Below are positions 6,974 to 31,004 of a DNA stretch of 32,000 nucleotides, one piece after another (positions within the stretch are counted from its first letter, which is position 1; every line of letters starts with the position of its first letter). The translations under genes and the position numbers were made by a program. The stretch spans positions 33,698 through 65,697 of the forward strand of contig NZ_MCIB01000002.1 in assembly GCF_003609645.1 (NCBI RefSeq), read 5' to 3'. This stretch comes from Thermohalobacter berrensis. GTDB lineage: Bacteria > Bacillota > Clostridia > Tissierellales > Thermohalobacteraceae. Below the pieces are notes generated by a model. That model had not been told where the DNA came from, did not search any database, and saw only the letters and a list, made by a program, of their open reading frames with translations.

Positions 6974-7055
6974 TATATCATGTTTATTTGTTAACAAATT
7001 TACTTTATAATTAGAATATCAATACATTAAAAACAACAGATTAAGGGGGATAAGG
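6902..7055 (+). repeat. Left 154-bp direct repeat (attL-like junction)
   Basis: By eye identical over its whole length to 21677-21830. It covers the last 72 nt of the L,D-transpeptidase CDS plus 82 nt of downstream sequence. Confidence 0.9.
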
Positions 7056-7184
7056 AATAGACAAAATAAAAAGAATACAATGTTTAAATAATTTTGCCCT
7101 AATGCACGTTAAAAATATAAACAAAACTAAAAAATAGTAAATATTAGTTAGGTAAAATTAAATAGGAAAACTGCTAATTATTAC

Positions 7185-7212
7185 TTGACAGTAACAAAAT
7201 GGCTTGTATACT
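7185..7212 (+). promoter_or_regulatory. Sigma-A-like promoter candidate for the hsd operon
   Basis: TTGACA (7185-7190), 16-nt spacer, TATACT (7207-7212). A second candidate is the extended -10 TGATATAAT at 7233-7241. Confidence 0.45.
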
Positions 7213-7298
7213 GGAATATAATTACAAAGGTATGATATAATTTTTATAGTCAACAAAACTATTAAAGCAAGTTATTTTAATATCGGAGGGTGAATTAT

Positions 7299-8816
7299 AT
7301 GTCTAAATTAACACTACAAAAACTAGAATCAACTTTATGGAAGGCAGCAGACATACTTAGAGGAGAATTAAGTGCTGCCGAATATAAAGATTATATATTT
7401 GGTTTATTATTTTTAAAGAGGATGAATGATCAATTTGAAGTTGAAAGACAAAAGAAAAAAGAAGAATTTTTATCACAGGGTATGGCTGAAGAAGAAGTAA
7501 ATATAATTCTTGAAGAATCTTCTATATATGAGAGTTTCTTTGTTCCAAAAAGGGCAAGATGGGAAAATTTAAGAAATTTAAATCTAAATATTGGGCCTGA
7601 ATTGGACAAGGCGTTTAAAGCAATAGAAGATGAACCTAAAAATTCTGAACTTATAGGTGTACTTACGACTGCAAATTACAACGATAAGGAAAGGGTGCCA
7701 GATAAAAAGTTATCTCAACTTTTATTGTTGTTTGATAGTATAAATCTTTCAAATGATAATCTTGAAAATAAAGATGTACTTGGTAATGCATATGAATATC
7801 TAATAAAAAAATTTGCTGATGAAGGTGGTAAAAAAGGTGGAGAATTCTACACTCCAGAGGAAGTAGTTAAAGTTCTTGTAAATATCCTAAAACCACAAGA
7901 AGGAGACAGAATATATGACCCAACTGTAGGAAGTGGGGGTATGCTAATACACTCAACTCATTACATAGAAAAACATGGTGGTAACCCTAAAAATGTTTCA
8001 CTGTTCGGTCAAGAAATAAATCTTTCTACGTGGGCTATTTGTAAAATGAATATGCTTTTCCATGATGCAAGGGGAGCAGATATACAAAAGGGCGATACTA
8101 TAAGATATCCTATGCATGTAGAAGGTGGAGTATTAAAAACCTTTGATATAGTTCTTGCAAATCCACCATTTTCGTTGAAAAACTGGGGTAAAGAAGAAGC
8201 ACAGGCAGATCCATATAATAGATTCCCATATGGAGTACCACCAAAAAGTTATGGTGATATGGCATTTGTATGCCACATGATAGCAAGTTTAAACGATAAA
8301 GGAAAAATGGGTACAGTAGTTCCACATGGAGTATTATTTAGAGGTGGAGCAGAAGGAAAGATAAGAAAAGGAATATTAAAGGATGATTTAATTGAAGCAG
8401 TAATAGGACTTCCTGCAAATATATTCTATGGTACAGGAATTCCAGCAGCATTACTTATAGTAAATAAAAATAAACCAGCAGAGAGAAAAGAAAAAATACT
8501 ATTTATAGATGCAAGTAAAGGCTTCATAAAGGACGGAAACAAAAATAAACTTAGAGAAGAAGATATAGAAAAGATAACTAAGACTTTTGATGAGTTCAAA
8601 GATGTGGATAAATATGCTAGAGTAGTAAGTTTAGATGAAATAAAAGAAAATGATTATAACTTAAATATAAGTAGATATGTAGATACAACTGAACCAGAAC
8701 CAGAAATAGATATACCAGAAGTTATTAAGGAAATAAAAGAATTAAAAGAAAAGTCTAAGAAAACAGAAGATAGATTAAATGAGTATTTAAAGGAATTAGG
8801 ATTTGATGAAATTTAA
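7299..8816 (+). CDS. hsdM: Type I restriction-modification system, N6-adenine DNA methyltransferase subunit
   Basis: AdoMet motif [10 protein letters not shown], catalytic NPPF ([11 protein letters not shown]), HsdM N-terminal helical domain. SD GGAGGG 8 nt before ATG 7299 (the ORF opens at GTG 7290). Confidence 0.95.
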
Positions 8817-8924
8817 AATAAGTATGTAAATAAGTTTTAAGAAACAGATGATGAATTAGAAATTTGTATTAGGTTAAATGATTGGTATTAAAAAACAAAA
8901 ATAATAAGGGGAATACAAGGTAAC

Positions 8925-9185
8925 ATGGATAATGTTCTTACAAATGAATTATTTTATAAATCTCTGTTAAAAGTTTTTGTTGAGATATTTAAAATGGCAT
9001 GGCAATTGGATGTTTTTAAGTCAGCAATTATAGGTATTCCTGTGTCTATAGTTACATATAGAATTGTTGGTTTCGTTTTTTCATGGGGTAGATATAATGG
9101 CATTTGGTTTGGAAGAGTAGGAGGAAAATTAATATATTATTGTATAAACTCGATTCTAATATGGTTAATTATGAAAGTGGTATAA
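8925..9185 (+). CDS. Hypothetical small membrane protein (86 aa) between hsdM and hsdS
   Basis: Two or three hydrophobic helices (SAIIGIPVSIVTYRIVGFVF; LIYYCINSILIWLIM). It is co-directional and ends 6 nt before the hsdS ORF opens. I recognise no family. Confidence 0.45.
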   Translation: MDNVLTNELFYKSLLKVFVEIFKMAWQLDVFKSAIIGIPVSIVTYRIVGFVFSWGRYNGIWFGRVGGKLIYYCINSILIWLIMKVV

Positions 9186-9200
9186 AGAGAGGTGAAGCAG

Positions 9201-10475
9201 TTGGGAACAATTAACAATGAACAATTAATAAATAATAATCAAAATAAATATAAAAAGACAGAAATAGGAGAGATACCGAAGGAGTGGGAGGTTAAGGAAA
9301 TAGGTGAAATAGGTTCAACTTATAATGGGTTATCTGGAAAAAACAAAGATGATTTTGGTAGAGGAAAGCCATTTATACCATATAAAAATATATTTGATAA
9401 TTCAAAAATAGATATTAATTATTTAGATTATGTTGTTATTAAAGACGATGAAAATCAGAATAAAGTTAAGTACGGTGATATATTTTTTACAACGTCATCT
9501 GAAACACCAGAGGAAGTAGGTATGAGTTCTGTTATTTTAGATGAAATAGATGAATTATATTTGAATAGTTTTTGTTTTGGATTTAGATTAAATGATTTTA
9601 GTATATTGTTACCTGAATTTGCAAGATACTTATTTAGAGGAGGCAAAATAAGAAAAATAGTCTCAAGATTGGCACAAGGCTCTACAAGATTCAATTTATC
9701 AAAAACTCAGTTTATGAAGATAAGTATCCCTATTCCCCCACTTAAAGAACAACAAAAAATAGCATCTATTCTTTCAACAGTGGATGAACAAATTGAACAA
9801 ACAGATGTATTAATCGAAAAAACTAAGGAACTTAAAAAAGGACTTATGCAAAAACTTCTGACTAAAGGTATTGGGCATACAGAATTTAAGAAGACGGAAA
9901 TAGGAGAGATACCGAAGGAGTGGGAGGTAATACCCCTATTTGATACAGGAGAATATATAAACGGAAAAGCATTTAAACCTTCTGAATGGAGAGATGAAGG
10001 TATTCCTATAATAAGAATTCAAAATTTAAATGATAAAAATGCAACATATAACTACTATAATCTAGAAGTAGATAAAAAATATCATGTAAATAAAGGTGAT
10101 TTATTATTCGCATGGTCAGGTTCTATAGGATTGCATATATGGAAAGAAGAGAAAGCATATCTAAATCAACATATTTATAAAGTTATTCCAAGCGAAAATG
10201 TAGATAAAAAATATTTATATTATCAATTATCTAGACAAATTGAAATTTTGCTTGAATTATCACATGGATCAACAATGAAACATATAACAAGAAAAAATTT
10301 AAAATTGGTAAAAATACCATTACCCTCACCTAAAGAACAACAAAAAATAGCCACTATTCTTTCAGAAGTAGATAACCAAATAGAGGAGTATGAAATAAAA
10401 AAAGAAAAACTTCAAAACCTTAAAAAAGGACTTATGCAACAATTATTAACAGGTAAAAAAAGGGTGAAAGTATAG
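9201..10475 (+). CDS. hsdS: Type I restriction-modification system, specificity subunit
   Basis: Two TRDs, each opened by TEIGEIPKEWEV and closed by conserved helices (PPLKEQQKIASILSTVDEQIEQ...KKGLMQKLLT and PSPKEQQKIATILSEVDNQIEE...KKGLMQQLLT). The ORF opens at GTG 9192; the TTG at 9201 has better SD spacing. Confidence 0.95.
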   Translation: MGTINNEQLINNNQNKYKKTEIGEIPKEWEVKEIGEIGSTYNGLSGKNKDDFGRGKPFIPYKNIFDNSKIDINYLDYVVIKDDENQNKVKYGDIFFTTSSETPEEVGMSSVILDEIDELYLNSFCFGFRLNDFSILLPEFARYLFRGGKIRKIVSRLAQGSTRFNLSKTQFMKISIPIPPLKEQQKIASILSTVDEQIEQTDVLIEKTKELKKGLMQKLLTKGIGHTEFKKTEIGEIPKEWEVIPLFDTGEYINGKAFKPSEWRDEGIPIIRIQNLNDKNATYNYYNLEVDKKYHVNKGDLLFAWSGSIGLHIWKEEKAYLNQHIYKVIPSENVDKKYLYYQLSRQIEILLELSHGSTMKHITRKNLKLVKIPLPSPKEQQKIATILSEVDNQIEEYEIKKEKLQNLKKGLMQQLLTGKKRVKV

Positions 10476-11305
10476 TGAGATATGCTTTGGCTTTTCGAGA
10501 TGCTAATTTCACAGAAACTCTAAAGTATATTGATGAAATTTCCAATAGATTTGTAAATGAAATAAAGAAGGTTAGTTACGTTTCAGGAGATGAAGAAATT
10601 CAGGAATTATTATCTGAACAAAGTTTAAATCAATTTTTAGCCATTACTTATTCATTAAATATCCCGATAAATGAGGCTAAGTTAAAGGATCCTAATTTTG
10701 AAGACCTTGGTGAATTGTTTGGATTTAATGATACATTAGAAAATAAAGCAAGACTTATGCAAATGTGGATTTCGTTGGGGTCTGCTCTTGAATCATTATT
10801 ACAAATATTTCTGGGAATCTATTTAAGGGATTATGAAAATTCAGGATGGGGAAAATGGGAGAATTTTAAACTCCAAGAAACTAAAGAGAATCTATTAAGA
10901 ACATTAAATGAGTTAAGAGAGAAAGAAATTATAAGTCAGAAACAAAAGAACACATTTAAGAAAGATATTAAGAACTATTTAAAAGATAAACAACAGACTA
11001 AACATTTAGCAGAGTTAATTTTAGGAAGTTTGATTAATTTTTATTATTCAAATAACTTGTGGCCAGATGATGATGCAGATAGGATAAAAGCAAAAATGGA
11101 TTTTATTAGAGAAAATAGAAACTGTGTACATTCATTTAAGGAGAGATATGTAGGAACTTGGGAAGAATTACTTGATTCTTTAAAGTTTTTTACCCAGATT
11201 ATGTTAGAACTTTTATCACGATTACCTGATGTAGATGAAATTCTCCAATATGAGATAGAACTAAAGTCTGAAATTGAGAGTTATTATAATGATTACTGGT
11301 ATTAA
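10475..11305 (+). CDS. Hypothetical all-helical protein (276 aa) between hsdS and hsdR; weak HEPN-like R-x6-H motif
   Basis: The GTG start shares one nt with the hsdS TAG stop (TAGTG), and AGGGTG lies about 8 nt upstream. Motif FIRENRNCVHSF sits near the C-terminus. I recognise no family. Confidence 0.55.
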   Translation: MRYALAFRDANFTETLKYIDEISNRFVNEIKKVSYVSGDEEIQELLSEQSLNQFLAITYSLNIPINEAKLKDPNFEDLGELFGFNDTLENKARLMQMWISLGSALESLLQIFLGIYLRDYENSGWGKWENFKLQETKENLLRTLNELREKEIISQKQKNTFKKDIKNYLKDKQQTKHLAELILGSLINFYYSNNLWPDDDADRIKAKMDFIRENRNCVHSFKERYVGTWEELLDSLKFFTQIMLELLSRLPDVDEILQYEIELKSEIESYYNDYWY

Positions 11306-11355
11306 AGATAGTTAAATAGTTTAAACTAGTGATATCAAAAGTAGGGGGGGGTAAC

Positions 11356-14300
11356 ATGTCTTATCTAGGGAATGAGGAAACCCTTGTTGAAATACCAGCA
11401 ATTGAATACCTACGGGATAAATTAGATTATCAATTTGTCCATGGACAGTTTTTAACCCCTGAATATGGTGAAAGAGATTCAATGACAGAGGTTATATTAA
11501 AGAAAAGGCTAGAAAAGGCACTCAAAAGACTTAATCCATGGATGAATGATACTAATATAAACAAGGCTATAAGATATCTTACTAGACCAGAAAATTTAGG
11601 GGTTAATTTGTATGACATAAATGAGAAAATATATGACGCTATTGTAAATTTATCTTACTCATTAGAACAAGACTTAGATGGTAGTGGTAAAAAGAAATAT
11701 TACACAATTAAGTTTATTGACTGGCATAATATAGATAATAATGAATTTTTAGTTACTAGACAATTTAAAGTACATGGACCAAATGAAAATATAATACCTG
11801 ATATAGTTATATTTATTAACGGGATACCTGTAGTAGTTTTAGAGTGTAAATCACCATTTCTTGAAAAGAGTAAAAACGAAAATATGGGAAAATATGAAGC
11901 CTTTAATCAACTCCAAAGATACATGAATGCAAGAGGTGGAAATATAGTAGAAGGTGCAGAAAGACTCTTTTATACAAACTTTATTACAGGTATATTAAAT
12001 AAATATCATGGTTACATAGGTACTATAAGTTCTACATATCAATTTTATCAGGAATGGAAAGACCCTTATCCTTTTAAAATAAAGGATATAGATGGAGTAG
12101 AGGATAATGGACAAAATATATTTTTACATGGCGTACTTGAAAAAGAGAATCTTGTAGATATAATGCAAAATTTTATATTATTTGAAAGTGGAGTTAAAAA
12201 GGTTTGTAGATATCAGCAATTTAGAGCAGTAAATAAGGCTTTAAAAAGACTTATTAAAGGTAAGGATTCAATAAGTCGTGGGGGAGTTATATGGCATACC
12301 CAAGGTTCGGGCAAATCGTTAACAATGGTATTTTTAGCAAGAAAAATAAGAAAAATTAAGGAACTTATGGATGCTACTATAGTTGTGGTAACTGATAGAA
12401 TAGACTTAGATAAACAAATTTACAACACTTTTGTAAGAACATTATCTAATATTACTACACCAGTTAGGGCAGATAGTGTGGCTTCATTAAAGGAATTACT
12501 ATCCCTTGCACAACCACAAATTATAATGACTACAATTCATAAGTTCCAAGGAGAAAAGGAAGATAAGGAAGTATTAAAGGATTCAAAACAAAAGAAAGGA
12601 TTGTATTTTGAAAAAGAGTTTCCGGTTTTAACTACAAAGTCAAATGTTATAGTACTTGCTGATGAAGCCCATAGAAGTCAATACAAGACAATGGCAAAAA
12701 ATATGAGGAATGCACTGCCAAATGCTGCTTTTATAGGATTTACAGGAACACCTATAGATAAAAAGGATAAATCCACAGTCAGAACATTTGGTAAATATAT
12801 AGATAAATATGGCATAAAACAAGCAGTAGAAGATGGAGCAACAGTAAAAATAGTATATGAAGGTAGAAAACCAGAACTTCAAATTAAAGGAGACACATTA
12901 GAGGAATTATTTGACGAAGCCTTCGGAGATAGAAGTGATGAAGAGAAGGAAGCAATAAAGCAAAAGTATGCTAACAAAAGGACAATAGTTGAGGCAGACG
13001 AAAGAATAGAAGATATAGCCAAGGATATTCTTACCCATTATAAAGAGCAGATTTATCCTAACGGATTTAAGGCACAGGTAGTGTGCGTATCAAGGGATGC
13101 GTGTGTAAAATACTATAACGCATTAAATAAATATATGGGAAAAATTATAGGAGAAAAATTAGAAGTAAAAATTATATTTTCAGGTAGTCCTAATGATGAG
13201 CCATATTTAAAAGAACACCACACTACAAAAGCAGAACAGGATGAAATAATAAAAAGATTTAAGCAACCAATAGATAAGGATAAACTCTGTTTTATTATTG
13301 TAAAGGATATGCTTCTTACGGGATTTGATGCACCAATTGAGCAAGTAATGTATTTAGATAGACCACTGAAAGAACATAATTTACTACAAGCAATTGCAAG
13401 GGTAAATAGAACATATGGAGATAGTAAGAAGTGTGGTTATGTAGTAGATTATTATGGTATATCTAATCATCTAGAAGAAGCATTAGCAATATTTGATAAA
13501 GAAGAACTAGGACAGCCAATGGAATCCTTAGATTCAATATATAATCAGATGCTTTCTTATAGAGAAGCAGTCATGAATATGTTTAGAGGTGTAGACAAAG
13601 ATGATTTAGACAGCCTAGTTAGAAAAATAGAGCCTGAAGATAAAAGGGCAGAATTTGAACTTGCGTACAAAAGATTTGCAAGTACAATGGAACAATTATT
13701 ACCTTCACGGGTTCCAACTAATATGATAAATGATCTGAGATGGCTTACATATATAAGAGCAGCTGCAAAGGCCAGATTTGAACCACAAAACAAATTAGAT
13801 ATAGCAGGGTGTGGAGGAAAGGTTAAAAAAATAATATCAGAACATCTAAAATCTAAAGGTGTAGAGCAATGGATTGAGCCTATTACATTGTTTGATTCAA
13901 ATTTTAATATAAAAATAAACAAATTAGAATCAGATGAAGCAGTAGCATCAAGCATGGAACATGCTATAAAACATGTAATAAATGTTAGAATGGATGAAAA
14001 CCCTGTTCATTATACTTCGTTGCTAGAAAAACTCAAAAAGATATTAGATGAAACCAAGAATAACTGGATAGAGAGAAAAAATAAGTTAAAAGAATTTATA
14101 GAAAATGACATCCAAAAAGGAGAAATAGAGGAAGCAGAGGCATTAGGACTTACAAAGGAAGAATATGCTTTCTTTCAAACAGTTAAAAAACATCTTAAAG
14201 ATGATAGTGATAATACAAATATAGTAAAAGAAGAAGGAGAAGATTATATATCAAATGAGATAATAGAATTATCGAAAAGTATTGCTAAGGATGTAAGCGA

Positions 14301-14484
14301 AATAGTAAAAGAAAATTATGTTATAGATTGGACAACAAATCCATCAAAGACCTCTGATATAGAAAGGGAAATTTATTTAACCCTTACAAAAAAATATTTT
14401 AAAAAGTTAAAGTTAGAGATAAGAAAACAGTTAGTACAGCCACTTCTTAATTTGGCCAAAAAACATTATGCAGTATTAGATTAA
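11356..14484 (+). CDS. hsdR: Type I restriction enzyme, restriction/translocase subunit
   Basis: N-terminal PD-(D/E)xK (IPDIVIFINGIPVVVLECK). SF2 motifs HTQGSGKSLTMV, VLADEAHRSQ, FTGTP and QAIARVNR. Long helical C-terminus. The G-rich SD precedes ATG 11356 (the ORF opens at 11329). Confidence 0.95.
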   Translation: MSYLGNEETLVEIPAIEYLRDKLDYQFVHGQFLTPEYGERDSMTEVILKKRLEKALKRLNPWMNDTNINKAIRYLTRPENLGVNLYDINEKIYDAIVNLSYSLEQDLDGSGKKKYYTIKFIDWHNIDNNEFLVTRQFKVHGPNENIIPDIVIFINGIPVVVLECKSPFLEKSKNENMGKYEAFNQLQRYMNARGGNIVEGAERLFYTNFITGILNKYHGYIGTISSTYQFYQEWKDPYPFKIKDIDGVEDNGQNIFLHGVLEKENLVDIMQNFILFESGVKKVCRYQQFRAVNKALKRLIKGKDSISRGGVIWHTQGSGKSLTMVFLARKIRKIKELMDATIVVVTDRIDLDKQIYNTFVRTLSNITTPVRADSVASLKELLSLAQPQIIMTTIHKFQGEKEDKEVLKDSKQKKGLYFEKEFPVLTTKSNVIVLADEAHRSQYKTMAKNMRNALPNAAFIGFTGTPIDKKDKSTVRTFGKYIDKYGIKQAVEDGATVKIVYEGRKPELQIKGDTLEELFDEAFGDRSDEEKEAIKQKYANKRTIVEADERIEDIAKDILTHYKEQIYPNGFKAQVVCVSRDACVKYYNALNKYMGKIIGEKLEVKIIFSGSPNDEPYLKEHHTTKAEQDEIIKRFKQPIDKDKLCFIIVKDMLLTGFDAPIEQVMYLDRPLKEHNLLQAIARVNRTYGDSKKCGYVVDYYGISNHLEEALAIFDKEELGQPMESLDSIYNQMLSYREAVMNMFRGVDKDDLDSLVRKIEPEDKRAEFELAYKRFASTMEQLLPSRVPTNMINDLRWLTYIRAAAKARFEPQNKLDIAGCGGKVKKIISEHLKSKGVEQWIEPITLFDSNFNIKINKLESDEAVASSMEHAIKHVINVRMDENPVHYTSLLEKLKKILDETKNNWIERKNKLKEFIENDIQKGEIEEAEALGLTKEEYAFFQTVKKHLKDDSDNTNIVKEEGEDYISNEIIELSKSIAKDVSEIVKENYVIDWTTNPSKTSDIEREIYLTLTKKYFKKLKLEIRKQLVQPLLNLAKKHYAVLD

Positions 14485-14496
14485 GGATGATACGAG

Positions 14497-15210
14497 ATGA
14501 AACTATCATTTAACTTTGGAACAAGAAATATAGAATTTGATGTAGAATATAGAAACAGAAAGACTATAGAAATAAGCATGGAGCCACCGGATACAATAAA
14601 CGTAGTGGCTCCTATTAATACTCCAGAGGATGTAATAATTAAAAAAGTAAAAAGCAGAGGCTCTTGGATAGTTCAAAAACTATTTGAATTTAAGAATATG
14701 GAATATAGAAAAATCAAAAGAGAATTTGTTAATGGAGAATCATTTATGTACTTGGGACGAAATTATTCTCTTCAGATAATAGATGATTTAAATATAAAAA
14801 GACCTGAAGTTAAACTATATCAAGGCAAATTTTATATAAAATCAAATACTAGACAAGAAGATATACTACAGGCTGCAATGGAAAATTGGTATAGGAAAAA
14901 GGCGTTAGAAAAGATAACTGAAAGGGTAAAGTATTATCAGCACTATTTTAAAGAAAAACCTTTAGATATAAAGGTAAAAGAGCAGCAGAAAAGATGGGCA
15001 AGTTGTACATCAAAGAATGAATTATTATTTAATTGGAGATGTGTAATGGCTCCATCTCATGTACTCGACTATATAGTAGTTCATGAAATGTGTCATATGG
15101 TTTATAAAAACCATTCAAAGGAATTTTGGGATTTAGTAGCATCAATAATGCCTGATTATCAAACTAGAAAAGAATGGCTTAGAGATTATGGGGTAAGGAT
15201 GGATTTGTAA
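14497..15210 (+). CDS. DUF45/YgjP-like (COG1451, annotated M48-like) zinc metallopeptidase
   Basis: HExxH in VVHEMCHMVYKNHSKEFW, the family-typical context. It starts 12 nt after hsdR, with SD AAGGATGA. Confidence 0.8.
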   Translation: MKLSFNFGTRNIEFDVEYRNRKTIEISMEPPDTINVVAPINTPEDVIIKKVKSRGSWIVQKLFEFKNMEYRKIKREFVNGESFMYLGRNYSLQIIDDLNIKRPEVKLYQGKFYIKSNTRQEDILQAAMENWYRKKALEKITERVKYYQHYFKEKPLDIKVKEQQKRWASCTSKNELLFNWRCVMAPSHVLDYIVVHEMCHMVYKNHSKEFWDLVASIMPDYQTRKEWLRDYGVRMDL

Positions 15211-15228
15211 AAACTAAAGGGGGATAAT

Positions 15229-16695
15229 ATGGAAGATAACTCAAGAGTTCCAAGAGTGTTTATATCTTATAGTTGGTCATCGCAAGACCATGAAAACTGG
15301 GTGTTGGAATTGGCTGAAAGACTAGTAAACGATGGGATAGATGTTATACTTGATAAATGGAATTTAAAAGAAGGACAAGATAAATATGTATTTATGGAGA
15401 AATCTATAAAAAGAGAAGATGTAGATAAAATCTTAGTAATTTGTGACAAAGTATATCAAGAAAAAGCAGATGAAAGAAAAGGTGGAGTAGGGACGGAATC
15501 TCAAATAATATCAAAAGAAGTGTATGAAGATACTGGTCAAGAAAAATTTATACCTATTATAAAAGAATTTGATGAAAATGGACAACCCTTTCTGCCTACT
15601 TTTTTCAGTACAAGAATTTACTTAGATTTTTCAGATCACTATAAATATGAGGAGAGTTATGAAAAATTAGTAAGAAGTTTATATGGGAAGCCCATGTATA
15701 AAAAACCCAAACTGGGTTCTCCTCCACCATATATTTTAGAAGATGAAGTTGATAACTCTAAAACTAAATACTATGTAAAACAGATTGAAAATGCAATATT
15801 GAATAATAAGAAATTCACAAAGGGGTTAATTGTTGATTTTTTAGATAAAATCATTGAATCTCTCGATGAATATAGAATCTATATTGATAATACATCAAAT
15901 ATTAATGAATTTGATGAACTAGTAATAGATAATATAAATAAATTAATACCGTTAAGAAACGATTTTATCAAAGTAGTAGATATAATTTTTAAATATAAAG
16001 AACATATTGATCTCAATAAGTTTCATAGGTTTTGGGAAGAAATAATAAAATATCAATATAAAACACCAGATATGAGTTCGTATTATCAATTCCAATTTGA
16101 TAATTTTAAGTTTTTTATATATGAATTATTTCTGTATTTTATAACTATATTATTAAAATTAGAAAAGTATGAAGAAGCATCTTTTTTCATTAATGCTACA
16201 TATTTTTATAAAATTAACAATTATGGAGAATTAGTTAACGGCAATATATCAGAATTCAATAATTATGTAGAATCACTTGAACAAATAAGGCAAAATAGAT
16301 TAAAGTTAAATAGAATATCTATAACAGCAGATTTAATAAAAGAAAGGGCTAATATTCACAATATAAAATTCAGAGATATTGTTGAAACAGACTATTTATT
16401 ATTTTTTATAACGATAAATAATAGTAAAGATAGTATAAGGCAAGATATATGGGTTCCTAGATGTAGTGTTTATAATAGTTATCATAGAAAACCTTTAATA
16501 TTTGAGAAGATGATTTCTGCTAGACACTTTGAAAAAGTTAAAATACTATTTAAAGTTAATACACCTGAAGAATTTAAAAATATGATATTAAAAACTACGG
16601 ATTTAGGTATAGATAAAGACTATTATAAATCATTTTATCGTATTATTTCTATAAATAAAGTAGTTGATATAGAAAAATTAGCAACTTTAGATTAA
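15229..16695 (+). CDS. TIR/SEFIR-like domain protein with an uncharacterised ~320-aa C-terminal domain
   Basis: N-terminus PRVFISYSWSSQDHENWVLELAERLVNDGIDVILDKWNL..G.....M...I...DKILVICDKVY...GGVGTESQII matches the SEFIR/TIR beta-alpha pattern. The remainder is helical, with one hydrophobic stretch (FFIYELFLYFITILL). SD AAGGGGGA. Confidence 0.65.
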   Translation: MEDNSRVPRVFISYSWSSQDHENWVLELAERLVNDGIDVILDKWNLKEGQDKYVFMEKSIKREDVDKILVICDKVYQEKADERKGGVGTESQIISKEVYEDTGQEKFIPIIKEFDENGQPFLPTFFSTRIYLDFSDHYKYEESYEKLVRSLYGKPMYKKPKLGSPPPYILEDEVDNSKTKYYVKQIENAILNNKKFTKGLIVDFLDKIIESLDEYRIYIDNTSNINEFDELVIDNINKLIPLRNDFIKVVDIIFKYKEHIDLNKFHRFWEEIIKYQYKTPDMSSYYQFQFDNFKFFIYELFLYFITILLKLEKYEEASFFINATYFYKINNYGELVNGNISEFNNYVESLEQIRQNRLKLNRISITADLIKERANIHNIKFRDIVETDYLLFFITINNSKDSIRQDIWVPRCSVYNSYHRKPLIFEKMISARHFEKVKILFKVNTPEEFKNMILKTTDLGIDKDYYKSFYRIISINKVVDIEKLATLD

Positions 16696-16725
16696 TCATA
16701 AATATAATAAAACAATATAAACAAA

Positions 16726-17448
16726 TTAGAAAGGGAATATCTTTAGCACGGATATTCCCTTCGGTATTTTTCTATTTTTCAAATATTCTTGTATAGCATT
16801 TCTGCAATCTGGGTTTATTGGAACTTTTCTATACTTGCCATGCTTACCGTAAATTAATAAATAAGAACCTCTTTCACGAAGTACTATATTATCAATTTTC
16901 AAAGAAATTACTTCACTAACTCTAAGATCATGTCTTAATAGTTTAATTATCAAAATATGATGCTTATAACCACTCCTGTAAATTTCCCTTTTTAGTTTCC
17001 GAAATGTCTTTTCATCTATCCATTTAGGTTGTGAAGGATTTTCAATTTTAATTTTTTAAAGATTCTTTGATACATCTTTTTTTATATAATTATAAGAATA
17101 AAGAAAAGAAAAGTAGTTTTTTAGGCTCATAATCTTTAAATTTACTGTATTTGCTTTTGCATTTTTAATATTGATTAGATAGGACCTAAAATCGCGGAGG
17201 TCTATTGTTGTAATTATTTGGGGTTGAAAGGAATCTGTATTAGATTTATTAAACCACTTTATAAAATTAACAATATTGTCTATATAAGTATTTATAGTTA
17301 ATTCTGTTTTATCTAGATTTTCTAGATATCCTTTAAACTCATTTAAATAATAACAATCCTTATTGATATATAAATCCCTTTTTTCATCTTTAACATACCT
17401 CCAAAATATTTTTTTAGAAGTATATAAATTTTTGATATTCAGTTTCAA
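16726..17448 (-). pseudogene. Tyrosine recombinase (XerC/D-like phage integrase) pseudogene: in-frame TAA plus loss of the C-terminal catalytic half
   Basis: ORFs 17056..17448 (SAM-like N-terminal domain) and 16726..16953 (LLRHDLRVSEV...GKHGKYRKVPIN) share one frame. Only the TAA at 17056-17058 separates them. The H-x-x-R and catalytic Tyr regions are missing. Confidence 0.8.
16731..16771 (+). terminator. Rho-independent terminator ending the hsd/TIR operon
   Basis: Hairpin AAGGGAATATC / GATATTCCCTT followed by CGGTATTTTT. It lies inside the last codons of the antisense integrase fragment. Confidence 0.65.
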
Positions 17449-17522
17449 GAAAAATTTAGTTTTTTGTATATAAAAATTAATAAAATTATGGCCTAAAAAG
17501 TTTTGTTTCCAATTTTTTAGCC

Positions 17523-17564
17523 TTATTTGTTAATGCATAAATTTTACAATTAGAATATTACTGC
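17523..17564. repeat. Degenerate att-like remnant next to the integrase
   Basis: Ungapped 32/42 match to 6984-7025 of the 154-bp repeat, including two exact 11-mers (TTATTTGTTAA and AATTAGAATAT) on the same diagonal. Confidence 0.55.
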
Positions 17565-17713
17565 TTTTGAAAAAGAGTAATTTTTGGTTGAAACATAAAA
17601 TTGAAAAAAGAATTCTAGTTATGTTTAAAAGTTATATGGAAAATCAAGGAAAAGTATTTTATAATAAAAGTGTAAAAGTTTGTATTATATATTTCAATAA
17701 CAGAGGGTATCGA

Positions 17714-19776
17714 ATGTTCGTTTCGAAATTATACATAAAAAACTTTAGAAGTATTAAGAAATTAAAAATTTCATTTAGATCAGGTAAAAACGTATTGGTT
17801 GTAAAGAATAATGCAGGAAAAAGTAATATAGTTAAAGCATTAAATTTGGTTTTAGGTGAAAAAAATCCTGTATATTCAAGGCAAATAAATGAAAAAGATT
17901 TTTTTTCATGTTCAAAAGATGGACAAGTAGTAAGTGAGAAGGCATTTTTTGTTGCAGCAAAATTACAAGGAAAAGATATAAATAAAACAATATTTCAAAA
18001 TGTTAATGGATTATGGTTGGCAACTTTTAAAAATTCAAATCCGTTAGAATCTTTTTTTGAAGGTAATAACTCAAAGAGTTACGAAATTCTCATGGGAAAT
18101 TTTCAGAATATTAAGAACAGAGAGTATTATAAGGATAAGAATCAGTTGTTTAATATGTTTAATAATGCAGATGAACTATACATTTATTTTTGTGCAGTTA
18201 AAGATGATGAGCAAAAGCGTAATATGGATTATTATCAAAAAAATATTCAATAACTTACAGTATATTATTAAAACATGATAACAACTATTATAGATGTTCA
18301 AAATTTCCAAATGACTTAAGGAATTCTTTAATAACAAGTGCAATTCTACCGGCTTTTAGAGATGCAAATAATCAATTGAGAATTAGTGATTGGAGGTTGT
18401 ATGGGAAACTAATTAAACATATATGGGAAAATTCGGATTTTAACAAGAAAGCAGTTATAGAGAAAAAACTTGATGAAATTAAACAAATAACTGATGACAT
18501 TTTTGATGATGCTATTATGGATATTCAACAAAAGATTAGAGAAGCAATATACTTTAGTAATATTTCATTCCAATTATTAGAAAATACTAAAGATGATATA
18601 TATAAAGGGATAGAAGTTTTTATTGACGATGGAATTTTAGGATTATTAAAGGATAAAGGAACTGGTATACAAAGTGCTTTTATAATATCATTATTTTCAT
18701 ATTATTGTAGTAAGTTTCATAAAAATTCGTCACTACTTGTAGTAGAAGAACCAGAAATTTATCTACATCCTCAAGCAAGAAGAGTATTATCGTATAAGTT
18801 TGATGAGTTTGTTAACCTTAATCATATTAACGGCAACCAAGTTATAATAACGACTCATTCAAGTGAATTCATTAGAAATACTAACTTAGAAAATATTATT
18901 CTTGTAAAAAAAGTTAACGGAAGAACTACAACTAAGAGTATTACATTGCATTCTGAAAAAATAAGGATTTAATAAAATTCAAAATATAATATCTACAAAA
19001 AATGCAGAAATATTTTTTGCTGAAAAAGTTATTTTAGTAGAAGGTGGAGAAGAATATATTGTACCATTAATTGTAGATGAATATTTTGGAAAGTCTGGTT
19101 ATTTAGATAATAATAATATTACAGTAGCAAAAGTTGGAGGTAAATATTTTTTTAAACCTTATTTGCAATTAATATCTGCCTTAGGAATTGAATATTATGT
19201 TATTGCTGATTTTGATATGCTTTATGAAGGATTAGAACATTTAAGAGAATTTATTAATTGTGTTACTTATTTAGACATTAATGAAATAAAAAGTGAATTA
19301 TTTAAAATTGTTACACCTGATAATCAATGGAAAGAAAGCAAAAAAATAAAGAAACAATTAAAAAAGTATAATGCAAAAGAATTTTGCAATCTAGTAGAAA
19401 AGATATGTGATACTAAAGAGTATGATGAACAATTATGTGAGATATGGTCAGATATTAAACCTAGATTTAAGAAGAAAATAGATTATGAAACTTTAAAGCA
19501 ACGTAAAAACTTACAAAAAAAATATATAATTTTATTGACAAATTAAAAGAAGATAATATTTATATTATGAAAAAAGGAGAATTAGAGGATTATATAACGT
19601 CTTATGGCTGGCAAGTAATAAAAGAATTTGGATTTTCAGATCAAAAAGAGTTGAGAATAATGAAGTTAGCAGAAATGATAAGTAGAGGGGATATTAAATT
19701 AGAAGATGTTATGGACGTACAAGAGTATTTAGAAGTGATTAAGAAAATAAAAGTTTTATTAAATAATAATATTTAA
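17714..19776 (+). pseudogene. OLD-family ATP-dependent endonuclease (ABC-type ATPase plus Toprim), disrupted by three frameshifts
   Basis: N-terminus YIKNFRSI...NNAGKSNIVKALNLVLG, signature GTGIQS, Walker B LLVVEEPEIYLHP, H-loop ITTHS, Toprim ILVEGGEE and VIADFD. The reading frame changes at the A7 run 18237-18243, within GGATTT 18965-18970, and at the A8 run 19515-19522. Confidence 0.8.
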
Positions 19777-19878
19777 ATATAAGTAAGAGATTATATATAT
19801 TGTCTTATAAATACTTAAATTCATAATAAACTTAAGCAGAAATATAATTAAATACATATATTACAAGGGGGAGTTTTT

Positions 19879-20832
19879 ATGATTTATAACTTTAGGATTG
19901 ACAGAAGTTGTAGAGAAGATATTATTAACAGAATTAAAACTGAAAAAACATTATCCCAAGGCTGGGGAGGTGGAGATTATAATCTAAGTTTGGAAGATGA
20001 AGATTTTGTCAATAGGTGTTATGAACACTATAAGTTGAATAGTACTAGAATACCTACTAACTTAACTAGAATTAGAGAATTTAAAGATAATGATATTATT
20101 GTAGTACCTCATTTGCCAGAAGATAGAAAAGTAACTTTCTTAATAGTTGATGAAGATTATCCTAACTGCTATGAATATGTTAAAAATGATAAAACCCATC
20201 AAAATCACAGAATTAAAATAAAAGAAGTATATGGATTAGAGGGAAATGTTGAGATATATAATGAGAAATTAGTAAATTGGTATGGTAAATTACAGTGGAT
20301 GAGACTACCTATACTGCCAATAGATAAGTTTAGTAAAGATATTAATGAGATTATAGATAATTTAAGAAAAAATCCAAGTTTAAAATTTAAAATGACAGAG
20401 TTAGATGAATATCTATTAAACAAAAAAGATGAGTTAGTTAATAAATTAAAAGAGGACTTACGAAAGATAAATGCAAGTAATAGTGCTTTATCTTTTGAAA
20501 AAATTTGTGAAAAAATAATAAAAGATAATGGGTATGAGATTAAAAGAAGAAACGTATATGACAAAACAGGTGGAGACATAGACCTAGAGTGTATAAGAAA
20601 TAGAAATGATATTTCACCTTTTGAGAGTGGAGAAGTCAAATTGTTTGTTCAGATTAAGAAACATAAAGGTGAAACTGATGAATATGCGGTAAAACAAGTT
20701 TCTAAATTTATGGATAAAAATCCAGAGGCTGATGGATGTGTTATGACACTAGCAGATAAATTTTCTGATAATGCAATTAAAGAGGCAAATGAAAAAAAAT
20801 ATTTCATTATTAAATGGAAAAGAAGTATGTGA
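19879..20832 (+). CDS. Mrr-like PD-(D/E)xK restriction endonuclease with an unknown N-terminal domain; C-terminus altered by an A8-tract frameshift
   Basis: C-terminal half FEKICEKIIKDNGYEI...GGDIDLEC...LFVQIKKHKG resembles the Mrr catalytic core. One fewer A in 20792-20799 would read ...EKNISLLNGKEVCELLLRSMIQIDG and stop at 20869. Confidence 0.65.
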   Translation: MIYNFRIDRSCREDIINRIKTEKTLSQGWGGGDYNLSLEDEDFVNRCYEHYKLNSTRIPTNLTRIREFKDNDIIVVPHLPEDRKVTFLIVDEDYPNCYEYVKNDKTHQNHRIKIKEVYGLEGNVEIYNEKLVNWYGKLQWMRLPILPIDKFSKDINEIIDNLRKNPSLKFKMTELDEYLLNKKDELVNKLKEDLRKINASNSALSFEKICEKIIKDNGYEIKRRNVYDKTGGDIDLECIRNRNDISPFESGEVKLFVQIKKHKGETDEYAVKQVSKFMDKNPEADGCVMTLADKFSDNAIKEANEKKYFIIKWKRSM

Positions 20833-21050
20833 GTTGCTACTAAGAAGTATGATTCAAATAGACGGCTAAATGAAACAACAGAAGTTAGTGGATTATTATA
20901 GATATTTAGTTCACTATCTTAATTTAATATTAAAAGTTCTTAAGATTTAACTAAAAGTAGTATTAATGAAAATACTGTTGTGGCAAGGTTATAATAAAAG
21001 AAAAAATAAACTTAATAGCATATAATATAAAAATACAAATATTTAATCTT

Positions 21051-21081
21051 AAAAATGGGCAGTAAAAAACTGCCCATTTTG
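21051..21081. terminator. Bidirectional rho-independent terminator
   Basis: Hairpin ATGGGCAGT / ACTGCCCAT flanked by an A-run and a T-run. Confidence 0.65.
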
Positions 21082-21147
21082 CATATTATATAGAATATGG
21101 AGGTAATGTTTATTTATTATTTTTTTAATACTTGATTTAACTAATAA

Positions 21148-21426
21148 TTATTCTAAAGTAGTCTTATAGCCCATATACGATAAAAGAACATGGAACAATA
21201 TACTTGCTAAGACATTTCTCAAAAAGTAATGTTGTGCATAAATACTATTACTTATTATATAGATGTAAATACATGTAGGTACTAACCAAAAAGAAAAATA
21301 AATTCTTTTAATCATTTTCTTTATTCTTTTAGTCATATGTGTTTCCACAAAAAACATTAAAAGATTGTATGCAACAGTGTAAACAAAGAGACAAAAAAAG
21401 ATAATTCTAAAATAATTACCTATCAT
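21148..21426 (-). CDS. Hypothetical small membrane protein (92 aa), last cargo gene of the island
   Basis: About three hydrophobic helices, a strong SD AAGGAGG 10 nt upstream of the ATG, and a terminator downstream at 21051-21081. Confidence 0.5.
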   Translation of the reverse strand: MIGNYFRIIFFCLFVYTVAYNLLMFFVETHMTKRIKKMIKRIYFSFWLVPTCIYIYIISNSIYAQHYFLRNVLASILFHVLLSYMGYKTTLE

Positions 21427-28837: not shown

Positions 28838-30235
28838 TCATACTAAACCTAGAAGATTAGTAGTAATATTTATTATAAAAGTAACTAAAACTGCAGTGGC
28901 TGTAGTTATTAAAAATGTGAAAAACGGCCATTTAAGACTATTTGTTTCTTTTCTAATAGTCAATAGTGTAGTTCCACAGGGAAAATGCAATAATGAGAAA
29001 AGCATAAAATTTAAACCTGTTACCCAAGTCCAACCATTATTAATTAATAAATTTTTTAAAGCAGTTAAGCTATCAAGTTCTAACATGGCCCCTTGAGACA
29101 TATAGCTCATTATTAAAATTGGAAGAACTATTTCATTAGCAGGTAATCCCAATATAAAGGCCATTAATATAAAACCGTCTAGCCCTAATAACTTTCCAAG
29201 TGGGTCTAAAAAACTTGCTGCATGATTTAATATACTTACATCACCTATTGTTATGTTTGCTACTAGCCAAGTAATTGCTCCAGCAGGAGCAGCAACCATA
29301 ACTGCACGCCCTAAAACAAATAAAGTTCTATCAATTAGTGACCTTATTAATATCCTTCCAACCTGTGGTTTCCTATAAGGTGGAAGTTCCAGCGTAAAGG
29401 ATGAGGGAACTCCCTTTAAGAAAGTTTTAGATAAAAACTTTGAAACTAAAAGTGTTACAAGAATTCCTATTAAAATCATACTAACAACTGATAATGAGGC
29501 GAATACAGAGCTAAAATGACTAGCTGCTAAGGAACCCATAAATATCATTGAGATAGCAATAAGGGTTGGAAATCTACCATTACAAGGTACATAATTGTTA
29601 GTAATTATTGCAATTAACCGCTCCCTAGGTGAATCAATTATTCTACAGGCTACTATACCTGCTGCATTACATCCAAAACCCATACTCATAGTTAGAGCCT
29701 GTTTTCCATGGGCTCCAGCTTTCCTAAAAAGGTTATCTAAATTAAAGGCTACTCGAGGTAAATATCCTAAATCCTCCATAAGTGTAAATAGTGGAAAGAA
29801 TATTGCCATTGGTGGCAGCATTACTGATACAACCCATGCCAAAGTTCTATACATGCCTAATACAAGCAAACCGTGGAGCCACTTAGGGGCGTTTAGAGAT
29901 ATAAAGAATTCTGTAAGTTCACCTTCTATACCAAATAAAATTGAAGCTAAGACTTCTGATGGGTAGTTAGCACCCTGTATAGTTATCCAAAATACTACCC
30001 CTAAGAGAATAAGCATAATAGGATAACCTGTAATTTTTGATGTTAAAATTTTATCTACTTTTTTATCCCAGTCTACTTTTTTTTCATCATTAACTGTTAC
30101 AACGTCCTTTGCAATTTTTTCTGCCTTTTGATATATTGAAGTTACTATATTATCACCAAATGATGGATTGTTATTTATTTTATCATTGACGAGTTTTTCT
30201 ATTTTATTATAAGATTTTTGAGGTGTATTATTCAT
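28838..30235 (-). CDS. feoB: Ferrous iron transporter FeoB, membrane (nucleoside-recognition/gate) part
   Basis: Polytopic sequence typical of the FeoB C-terminal portion. ATG 30235 has SD GGAGGG 7 nt upstream and overlaps the G-domain ORF stop (ATGAATAA). Confidence 0.85.
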   Translation of the reverse strand: MNNTPQKSYNKIEKLVNDKINNNPSFGDNIVTSIYQKAEKIAKDVVTVNDEKKVDWDKKVDKILTSKITGYPIMLILLGVVFWITIQGANYPSEVLASILFGIEGELTEFFISLNAPKWLHGLLVLGMYRTLAWVVSVMLPPMAIFFPLFTLMEDLGYLPRVAFNLDNLFRKAGAHGKQALTMSMGFGCNAAGIVACRIIDSPRERLIAIITNNYVPCNGRFPTLIAISMIFMGSLAASHFSSVFASLSVVSMILIGILVTLLVSKFLSKTFLKGVPSSFTLELPPYRKPQVGRILIRSLIDRTLFVLGRAVMVAAPAGAITWLVANITIGDVSILNHAASFLDPLGKLLGLDGFILMAFILGLPANEIVLPILIMSYMSQGAMLELDSLTALKNLLINNGWTWVTGLNFMLFSLLHFPCGTTLLTIRKETNSLKWPFFTFLITTATAVLVTFIINITTNLLGLV

Positions 30236-31004
30236 ATAGTTTCCCTCCAATTCCCTTAGAACTTTTTATAGTTATAATGTCTTTAATTGAATTGATTATT
30301 GCTTTATCACCATCTATAAGTCTAAGGGCTAGCCATCTAGTATTAAACTGACTTCCCAAAATCTTTACCAGTTCTTTTTCGATTTCTTTTACTGTAGATT
30401 CAATTTGTTCATTATATTTTAATTTAAAGGGATTAGTTTTTATTTCCCCATTAGTCATTTTATATATAGTTTCAAGAAGTCTACCTATACCTTTTTCTTC
30501 TCTAGCTATTGTAGGAATTACTGGAACGCCTAACTTTTCCTCTAATTTTTTTACATCTATTTCTAGCCCCTTTCTTTTAGCTTCATCCATAAGGTTTAAG
30601 CATACTATAACTTTATCTGTTATTTCCATTACTTGAAGGACTAGATTTAGATTTCTTTCTAAGCAAGTTGAATCAGTAATTACTATAGTTATTTCAGGAT
30701 TTCCAAAACAAATAAAATCCCTTGCTACCTCTTCATCTGTAGAATTAGCTAATAAGGAATAGGTTCCAGGTAAATCAACTATTAAAAACTCCTTACCTTT
30801 ATACTTGAATGTTCCCTTAGCATTAGTTACAGTTTTTCCAGGCCAGTTACCTGTATGCTGGTTTAAGCCAGTAAGGGCATTAAATAAAGTACTTTTACCA
30901 GTATTGGGGTTTCCAGCTAAGGCTATAACTGTTTTATTGTCCGTTTCAATATCAAATTTTTGCTTTAATAAAGATAATCCAGTAGATTGATTAGTAAGAC
31001 CCAT
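30228..31004 (-). CDS. feoB: Ferrous iron transporter FeoB, N-terminal GTPase (G-domain plus helical domain) as a separate ORF
   Basis: G1 GNPNTGKST, G3 DLPG, G4 NLMD. Confidence 0.9.
   Translation of the reverse strand: MGLTNQSTGLSLLKQKFDIETDNKTVIALAGNPNTGKSTLFNALTGLNQHTGNWPGKTVTNAKGTFKYKGKEFLIVDLPGTYSLLANSTDEEVARDFICFGNPEITIVITDSTCLERNLNLVLQVMEITDKVIVCLNLMDEAKRKGLEIDVKKLEEKLGVPVIPTIAREEKGIGRLLETIYKMTNGEIKTNPFKLKYNEQIESTVKEIEKELVKILGSQFNTRWLALRLIDGDKAIINSIKDIITIKSSKGIGGKLYE

Follow-up and report, generated by a model that had tools for sequence, protein, structure and literature searches.

A probable bSEFIR anti-phage gene at the end of a type I restriction–modification operon of Thermohalobacter berrensis

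We analyzed a 32 000-nt stretch of the genome of Thermohalobacter berrensis (Bacillota, Tissierellia; contig NZ_MCIB01000002.1, positions 33 698 to 65 697), referred to below as the window, with the focus on a gene for a SEFIR-domain protein situated at the 3′-end of a type I restriction–modification (R-M) operon, hsd. As judged from its sequence, this gene is very likely to be an intact, canonical member of bSEFIR, a known family of one-protein anti-phage systems that destroy nicotinamide adenine dinucleotide (NAD+). By analogy with characterized members of the family, its most likely function would be that of a phage-triggered, NAD+-depleting abortive-infection protein working independently of the R-M system. 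Coordinates of the features are collected in Table 1.

Millman et al. (2022) showed that a SEFIR-domain protein of Bacillus sp. NIO-1130 protects Bacillus subtilis against phi29; in the preprint of the same work, the substitution D40A abolished the bSEFIR defence. According to published studies, SEFIR is a single-protein system whose N-terminal SEFIR domain depletes NAD+; the reaction yields ADP-ribose (ADPR) and nicotinamide, and a phage pathway of NAD+ reconstitution, NARP1, overcomes SEFIR. A SEFIR protein of Streptococcus thermophilus was also reported to protect, with narrow phage specificity.

The PADLOC bSEFIR model (PDLC03957) matched residues 3–486, i.e. the whole T. berrensis protein, with an E-value of 5.3e-109 (363.7 bits). 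The BLASTP alignment with the verified bSEFIR of Bacillus sp. NIO-1130 (39% identity, E-value 1e-96) extended from residue 8 to residue 421 of the query and from residue 6 to residue 399 of the Bacillus protein, thus including both domains. The SEFIR match is located at the N-terminus and scores above the TIR match, in agreement with the rule by which Millman et al. selected the family; also, D42, the equivalent of the defence-essential D40, is present. An anti-phage system made of a single SEFIR gene had been mentioned in an earlier reading made from the sequence alone (the sequence-only reading), and it is to this published family that the protein belongs by the matches just given.

The family is large. 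At E-values up to 1e-5 we found 4346 homologs; among the top 120 of them nearly all were about 460–500 amino acids (aa) long, with a query coverage of no less than 90%. A genome collection that has one genome for each species contained 555 loci encoding a relative, and these loci spanned many phyla. T. berrensis itself is absent from the 2022 list of 460 genomes (Millman et al.). In NCBI the predicted product is listed, with 100% identity, as ‘SEFIR domain-containing protein [Thermohalobacter berrensis]’, while NCBIfam had no match for the protein. Thus, the public database already names the SEFIR domain; we suggest that the gene be labeled bSEFIR rather than a novel TIR fusion or an R-M subunit.

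Over residues 9–148 the Pfam SEFIR family (E-value 1.4e-21, 77.8 bits) scored higher than TIR_2 (3e-18, 66.9 bits). The crystal structures of a prokaryotic SEFIR domain, PDB 5y8e/5y8f, were matched by sequence (E-value 9e-44, about 51% identity) as well as by fold: a Foldseek search with the full-length AlphaFold model gave an E-value of 1.7e-10 and a template modeling (TM) score, normalized by target, of 0.85–0.88. The next matches of the full-length model were IL-17R/Act1 SEFIR, SPARTA TIR, MyD88 and AbTir, all restricted to the N-terminal SEFIR/TIR part of the query; among the entries matched were 8qlp, 7uxu, 7djt, 9ot1 and 3vbc. Both Foldseek and the Pfam TIR_2 match therefore place the domain in the TIR/flavodoxin-like fold.

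Two residues of this domain deserve attention. D42 was invariant in an alignment of 32 sequences and conserved in 87% of 82 diverse cluster representatives; for E90 the respective figures were complete invariance and 95%. In the pairwise alignment with the verified bSEFIR, E90 of the GVGTE segment pairs with E88 of GGVGDE. The distance from strand βA to E90, 80 residues, presumably parallels the one leading to E642 of SARM1 (about 78).

The motifs quoted in the sequence-only reading are all present, VFISYSW at residues 10–16, DVILDKW at 38–44, VICDK at 70–74 and GTES at 88–91. Its assignment of the N-terminal part to the SEFIR/TIR type was upheld by Pfam SEFIR and TIR_2, by the sequence match to 5y8e and by Foldseek; in the profile check, the two Pfam families and the PADLOC bSEFIR model all matched. 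The suggestion that GTES could contribute the catalytic Glu agrees with the conservation of E90, with the catalytic role remaining putative.

The same reading saw the domain as fused to about 320 residues that could not be assigned. It was right in that residues from about 176 to 488 have no Pfam or NCBIfam family. Since the alignment with the NIO-1130 protein runs well into the C-terminus, though, the ‘unassigned’ region belongs to bSEFIR as its canonical second domain, and no new fusion is involved; what was seen is the published architecture (E-value 5e-109 for the profile; 39% identity).

The full-length AlphaFold model had a predicted local distance difference test score (pLDDT) of 84.6 and a predicted TM score (pTM) of 0.64. 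When residues 176–488 were refolded alone with AlphaFold 2 (AF2), these values rose to 91.2 and 0.92; the predicted fold is a helical bundle with one β-hairpin. Searches for relatives of this fold and sequence outside of the family gave little. With the C-terminus alone, Pfam at E-values up to 10 returned only noise (DUF6730 was the best, at 0.053), and Foldseek found nothing significant in either PDB (best E-value 0.11, TM at most 0.34) or BFVD (best E-value 0.24). A profile made from the 32-sequence alignment matched only the SEFIR crystal structures among PDB sequences. As modeled, the C-terminal domain is an orphan fold as far as PDB and BFVD go. The copy of PDB that we searched had no full-length bSEFIR structure, and our literature search for a paper on such a structure, or on the bSEFIR trigger, found none. 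For a few homologs the family PF27287, absent from the Pfam copy used, is listed.

We then asked which proteins share the C-terminal domain. A search of 1.84 billion cluster representatives with the C-terminus alone returned 1135 relatives; 143 of the top 150 were classified by architecture. A SEFIR N-terminus was present in 91 of the 143, 48 consisted of the C-terminal domain only and four had another N-terminus. Many of the 48 short proteins are probably fragments. The protein P0127 (615 aa, locus L081, 6001–7848), seen on five contigs, has an N-terminal Ser/Thr kinase domain (Pkinase, E-value 1.7e-36) followed by a bSEFIR-type C-terminal domain. In P0219, known from a single 2.7-kb contig, the N-terminus is an AAA_31/ParA-like P-loop NTPase. 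The N-terminus of P0198 had no Pfam assignment, and that of P0158 gave just a sub-threshold match to Nuc_deoxyrib_tr (E-value 0.0088, 16.6 bits against a cut-off of 28.8).

Several residues, most of them polar (D229, R243, D291, E299, R354, R357, R373, D388, W408 and P410), are kept across the SEFIR, kinase and P-loop architectures. Because different N-terminal effectors go together with one conserved C-terminal core, we infer that the C-terminus is a sensing or regulatory module; to this extent the sensor–effector organization proposed in the sequence-only reading is supported. That the same C-terminal domain occurs on a kinase and on a P-loop NTPase is, we believe, a small new point. One could go further and speculate that the domain is not confined to SEFIR but serves as a portable sensor module, an idea that we put forward tentatively and regard as rather doubtful at present. 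A conserved polar cluster would fit an invariant cue, a small molecule or a nucleic acid, better than a variable phage protein; if this is true, biochemical work could reveal the trigger, and the T. berrensis protein would be a good target for structural studies.

P0127 could possibly be a defence protein, so far undescribed, in which a kinase is the effector and the sensor domain is that of bSEFIR. Its gene is part of a defence island. On one side it is accompanied by a gene of an OLD-like TOPRIM ATPase, and on the other side by genes of a 1317-aa STAND-like ATPase and AbiEii.

The cue recognized by bSEFIR is the question for the field, and the search for it is narrowed by the orphan fold, the conserved polar core and the reuse with kinase and P-loop effectors. 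T. berrensis is presumably a thermophilic, halophilic anaerobe, and a thermophile ortholog may suit work on the full-length structure.

The start codon assigned to the gene is the earliest one after the preceding in-frame stop. The preceding gene, coding for a YgjP-like (DUF45) metallopeptidase, ends with TAA at 15208–15210, leaving an intergenic gap of 18 nt; the position of the open reading frame (ORF), this spacing and the place of the gene as the last one on the hsd strand had all been read correctly from the letters. In a terminator scan the hairpin downstream of the SEFIR gene was the sole strong terminator-like site from hsdM through the SEFIR region. No such site was found between the YgjP-like gene and the SEFIR gene; otherwise the scan detected, between hsdM and the SEFIR stop codon, one weak stem of five base pairs within hsdR. 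A near-consensus promoter-like site is located upstream of hsdM, at 7185–7212. As there is no terminator-like site before the SEFIR gene and a strong one right after it, read-through transcription is likely, and the gene is probably read from the hsd promoter.

Comparison with Mobilitalea sibirica, which we take to be a member of Lachnospiraceae, shed light on the origin of this arrangement. Its locus L084 has hsdM, an 86-aa ORF, hsdS, a 278-aa ORF, hsdR and a YgjP-like gene in the same order, and then, on the opposite strand, an intact gene of a 297-aa tyrosine integrase. The SEFIR gene is absent from this syntenic operon: the integrase gene directly follows the YgjP-like gene. In the blastn alignment, positions 7231–15210 of the window matched 6923–14715 of L084 in four blocks with 77–80% nucleotide identity, and the last block ended exactly at the YgjP stop codon. 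Homology resumed at 16777–17626 of the window (15155–15999 of L084, 68% identity). What lies between is a cassette made of the SEFIR gene and its terminator only, with a guanine–cytosine (GC) content of 24.7% against 29.7% in the hsd operon.

Of the 297 residues of the M. sibirica integrase, the window retains 3–205, broken into two ORFs; at the junction with the cassette, 92 residues of the C-terminus have been lost. The integrase is whole in M. sibirica but cut off at this junction in T. berrensis, which is most simply explained by a secondary insertion of the SEFIR cassette into a mobile hsd–integrase element. Having inactivated the integrase, the insertion probably held the island in place. 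The locus thus presents a dated example of the growth of a defence island, with a single-gene cassette placed between a mobile R-M module and its integrase.

The target-recognition regions of hsdS were largely unaligned between the window and L084. That the module from hsdM to the YgjP-like gene, together with the integrase, is common to both species with about 68–80% nucleotide identity indicates a horizontally mobile type I R-M island that would have diverged in specificity.

We also surveyed 80 loci of the family, with up to 10 kb of flanking sequence. A tblastn search with the hsd and DUF45 proteins of the window detected type I R-M genes nearby in three of the loci (L034, L051 and L068) and a DUF45 gene in one. 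All-against-all clustering of 1140 neighbor ORFs revealed no conserved neighbor; the commonest family occurred in five loci of the 80. The bSEFIR gene therefore appears as a single gene with no obligate neighbor, a picture to which the syntenic operon without it conforms. Nor is the gene conserved together with hsdM, hsdS and hsdR, as would be expected of an integral R-M component: the M. sibirica operon lacks it, and three loci of 80 have it near such genes. For these reasons a functional tie to the DUF45 gene or to the hsd operon, which the sequence-only reading had implied, finds no support.

In L068 (Dyadobacter sp. LHD-138, 6997–11425) the bSEFIR gene starts 50 nt after hsdR on the same strand. 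In L034, from a metagenome-assembled genome of Thermoanaerobacteraceae (10001–21173), it is situated just upstream of hsdM, on the same strand, and a DUF45 gene is also the last gene of that operon. It may be that defence cassettes land repeatedly at the ends of hsd operons.

A role of the protein within the R-M system still has to be weighed. It could be an accessory or ‘guard’ that works with the YgjP-like peptidase, or senses phage anti-restriction proteins or R-M failure, and then kills the cell by NAD+ depletion. Such a role would agree with the position of the gene, which follows the YgjP-like gene by 18 nt in the same orientation and has its own ribosome-binding site, with the terminator-like site placed after and not before it, and with L068 and L034, where bSEFIR genes also directly adjoin one end of such an operon and share its strand. 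However, the frequencies of type I R-M and DUF45 genes seen in the survey are at the level expected from the clustering of genes in defence islands; the M. sibirica operon, about 77% identical, is complete without the SEFIR gene; the differing GC content of the cassette and the truncation of the integrase mark a secondary insertion; and the verified bSEFIR acts as a single gene. We consider the accessory role improbable. Even less probable is a Thoeris-like arrangement, with the SEFIR domain making an ADPR-derived second messenger that a separate effector would respond to, in place of depleting NAD+ itself. Signal production is established for bacterial TIR domains in Thoeris, and the protein does have a TIR-fold domain with a conserved Glu. 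Still, no conserved partner gene stands beside members of the family; no SIR2, SLOG or Macro effector, as expected for a ThsA, is present in the window or recurs in the 80 loci; and the literature describes bulk NAD+ depletion, with rescue by NAD+ rebuilt from ADPR and nicotinamide.

An adaptor role was the first to be proposed for the SEFIR structure of Bacillus cereus (an early hypothesis quoted in Millman et al.). The SEFIR domain would then be an adaptor only, as in IL-17R/Act1, and the toxic or effector activity would come from an enzyme site formed in the C-terminal domain by its conserved D/E/R residues. There is a structural likeness to SEFIR assemblies of IL-17RA/RB/ACT1 (9ot1, E-value 7.6e-4), and D229, R243, D291, E299, R354 and D388 of the C-terminal domain persist in the proteins that start with a kinase or a P-loop NTPase. 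We give this explanation very little credence, as E90 shows 95% conservation and its place is compatible with that of the catalytic Glu after strand βC in TIR-fold NAD+ glycohydrolases, published work assigns NAD+ depletion to the SEFIR domain, and replacement of the N-terminus by effector-type domains (kinase) is better explained if the C-terminus is the sensor. Finally, the gene could be a silent or decaying passenger of an eroding defence island, given that the adjoining integrase is truncated and that an OLD/AAA_15-type ATPase gene downstream is in pieces, with two ORFs at least and perhaps as many as four. The SEFIR ORF, on the contrary, is of full length, aligns with its homologs from end to end, keeps all the invariant residues of both domains and has a good ribosome-binding site and a terminator; decay of this gene seems extremely unlikely.

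The assignment to bSEFIR as a working NAD+-depleting system also meets several points that weigh against it. The identity to the verified homolog is just 39%; that protein is 468 aa long (Table S2 of Millman et al.), and the comparison covered its residues 1–399. No fold relative of the C-terminus in PDB or BFVD hints at a ligand. The loop 85–90 around E90 was modeled at pLDDT below 50, and the view of E90 as a putative catalytic residue is based on conservation and on the spacing in SARM1. The island holds decayed genes (the integrase and the OLD-like ATPase), so that loss of expression or function of the SEFIR gene is conceivable as well. Phage defence, the phenotype of the Asp residue and NAD+ depletion would apply to the T. 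berrensis protein by analogy, being taken from the 39%-identical homolog.

With bSEFIR membership as the preferred explanation, the following mechanism can be proposed. In an uninfected cell the protein would be inactive, with the SEFIR domain tethered by the Pro-rich linker to the helical C-terminal domain. Upon infection, the C-terminal domain would detect its cue, and detection would lead to self-association in which the SEFIR domains touch through the surface containing D42. A NAD+ glycohydrolase site would thereby form around E90; cleavage of NAD+ to ADPR and nicotinamide would abort the infection. The gene would be co-transcribed from the hsd promoter, while being functionally independent of restriction. 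In this scheme we infer the activation by oligomerization, the function of the C-terminus as a sensor and the co-transcription.

Table 1. Features of the window discussed in the text (positions are those of the window)
Feature	Coordinates	Strand	Basis or remark
bSEFIR gene	15229..16695	+	488 aa plus stop, ATG start; ORF call
N-terminal SEFIR/TIR-fold domain, residues 9–148, predicted NAD+ glycohydrolase effector	15253..15672	+	Pfam; PDB 5y8e/5y8f by sequence and fold
D42 codon	15352..15354	+	Aligns with D40 of verified bSEFIR (pairwise alignment)
E90 codon (GVGTE), putative catalytic glutamate	15496..15498	+	Aligns with E88 of verified protein
Pro-rich flexible linker, about residues 160–178	15706..15762	+	pLDDT below 50 at residues 164–175
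Family-specific C-terminal domain, about residues 179–488, presumed sensor/regulatory	15763..16692	+	AF2 model, conservation
Shine–Dalgarno-like AAAGGGGG	15216..15223	+	5 nt before SEFIR ATG, in the 18-nt gap; sequence read directly
Intrinsic-terminator-like hairpin, 12-bp stem then T-run	16731..16771	+	36 nt past SEFIR stop codon
SEFIR cassette, 1566 bp, absent from M. sibirica locus	15211..16776	.	blastn, GC, junction sequences
Truncated tyrosine-recombinase pseudogene	16768..17448	-	Pfam Phage_int_SAM_4, Phage_integrase fragment, tblastn
Type I R-M operon, context outside the SEFIR system	7290..15210	+	Family searches, synteny with L084
hsdM	7290–8816	+	
orf86, 86 aa	8925–9185	+	Between hsdM and hsdS; no Pfam, PADLOC or NCBIfam family
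hsdS	9192–10475	+	
orf276, 276 aa	10475–11305	+	Between hsdS and hsdR; start overlaps hsdS stop codon
hsdR	11329–14484	+	
YgjP-like/DUF45 metallopeptidase	14497–15210	+	
OLD/GajA/AriA-type AAA_15 ATPase, N-terminal and C-terminal ORFs	17567–18253, 18376–18972	+	
Two short ORFs, no family match	19163–19546, 19567–19776	+	
317-aa protein, C-terminal Mrr_cat domain (E-value 1.5e-11), weak DUF6414 match	19879–20832	+	No PADLOC match
feoB in two overlapping ORFs	28838–30250, 30228–31004	-	One with FeoB_N and cytosolic domain, the other with Gate and FeoB_C

The defence island of the window extends from 7290 to 20832 and has housekeeping genes on both flanks. Two small genes of the hsd operon drew our attention. 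For orf276, orf86 and the YgjP-like protein NCBIfam had no match. At the position of orf86, M. sibirica has an 86-aa gene, a part of which aligns at 72% nucleotide identity. The product of orf276, which falls into no family of Pfam, NCBIfam or PADLOC and has just four homolog clusters among 5.8 billion proteins, is conserved in the hsd operon of M. sibirica (the 278-aa ORF, 79% identity). In the metagenomic locus L085 a 50%-identical homolog stands alone beside a Gabija-like OLD-TOPRIM ATPase and a UvrD helicase, within a Tn7-like element. A weak match to the PADLOC model Specificity_I raised the possibility that orf276 is a half-HsdS remnant; this was rejected, as BLASTP showed no similarity to the HsdS of the window. 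We characterize orf276 as a candidate for an uncharacterized defence or anti-defence gene, arguably more novel than the SEFIR gene.

Downstream of the integrase remnant, the split AAA_15 ATPase looks like a pseudogenized defence gene of Gabija, PARIS or OLD type, and the two short ORFs that follow may be its further pieces. At the island's edge, the Mrr_cat protein may represent a nuclease defence gene, whether type IV-like or of another kind. The split of feoB could stem from a frameshift or a sequencing error, or else the gene may be naturally split.

Among known systems, DSR1 and DSR2 follow the same logic as bSEFIR, with an N-terminal NAD+-depleting domain and a large C-terminal sensor in one polypeptide; their effector is SIR2, however, their sensors are much larger, and neither sequence nor fold relates them to the C-terminus of the T. 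berrensis protein. The TIR-fold effectors, SPARTA TIR-APAZ, AbTir, TIRs of the SARM1 type and type I Thoeris, have in common with bSEFIR the flavodoxin-like TIR fold and, probably, the conserved Glu. Such effectors are activated by oligomerization. The sensor of bSEFIR is different, with no Argonaute, APAZ, STING or ThsA partner, and its sequence falls into the SEFIR subfamily. Eukaryotic SEFIR domains, those of IL-17 receptors and Act1, are members of the same Pfam family, with a fold that is similar (9ot1, 3vbc); unlike bSEFIR, they are signaling adaptors in another protein context, with no known NAD+ glycohydrolase activity.

The B. cereus SEFIR crystal structures 5y8e/5y8f (Yang et al. 2018) resemble the N-terminal 150 residues of the T. 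berrensis protein; they cover the SEFIR domain only, whereas the C-terminal domain is without a solved counterpart. The closest likeness is to the verified bSEFIR (Millman et al.), a stand-alone gene in a defence-island setting with the same two-domain architecture (488 versus 468 aa). Compared with the bSEFIR family at large, the T. berrensis gene is distinguished by being the last, 3′-terminal gene of a probable type I R-M transcription unit, a placement as unusual as the three loci in 80 would indicate.

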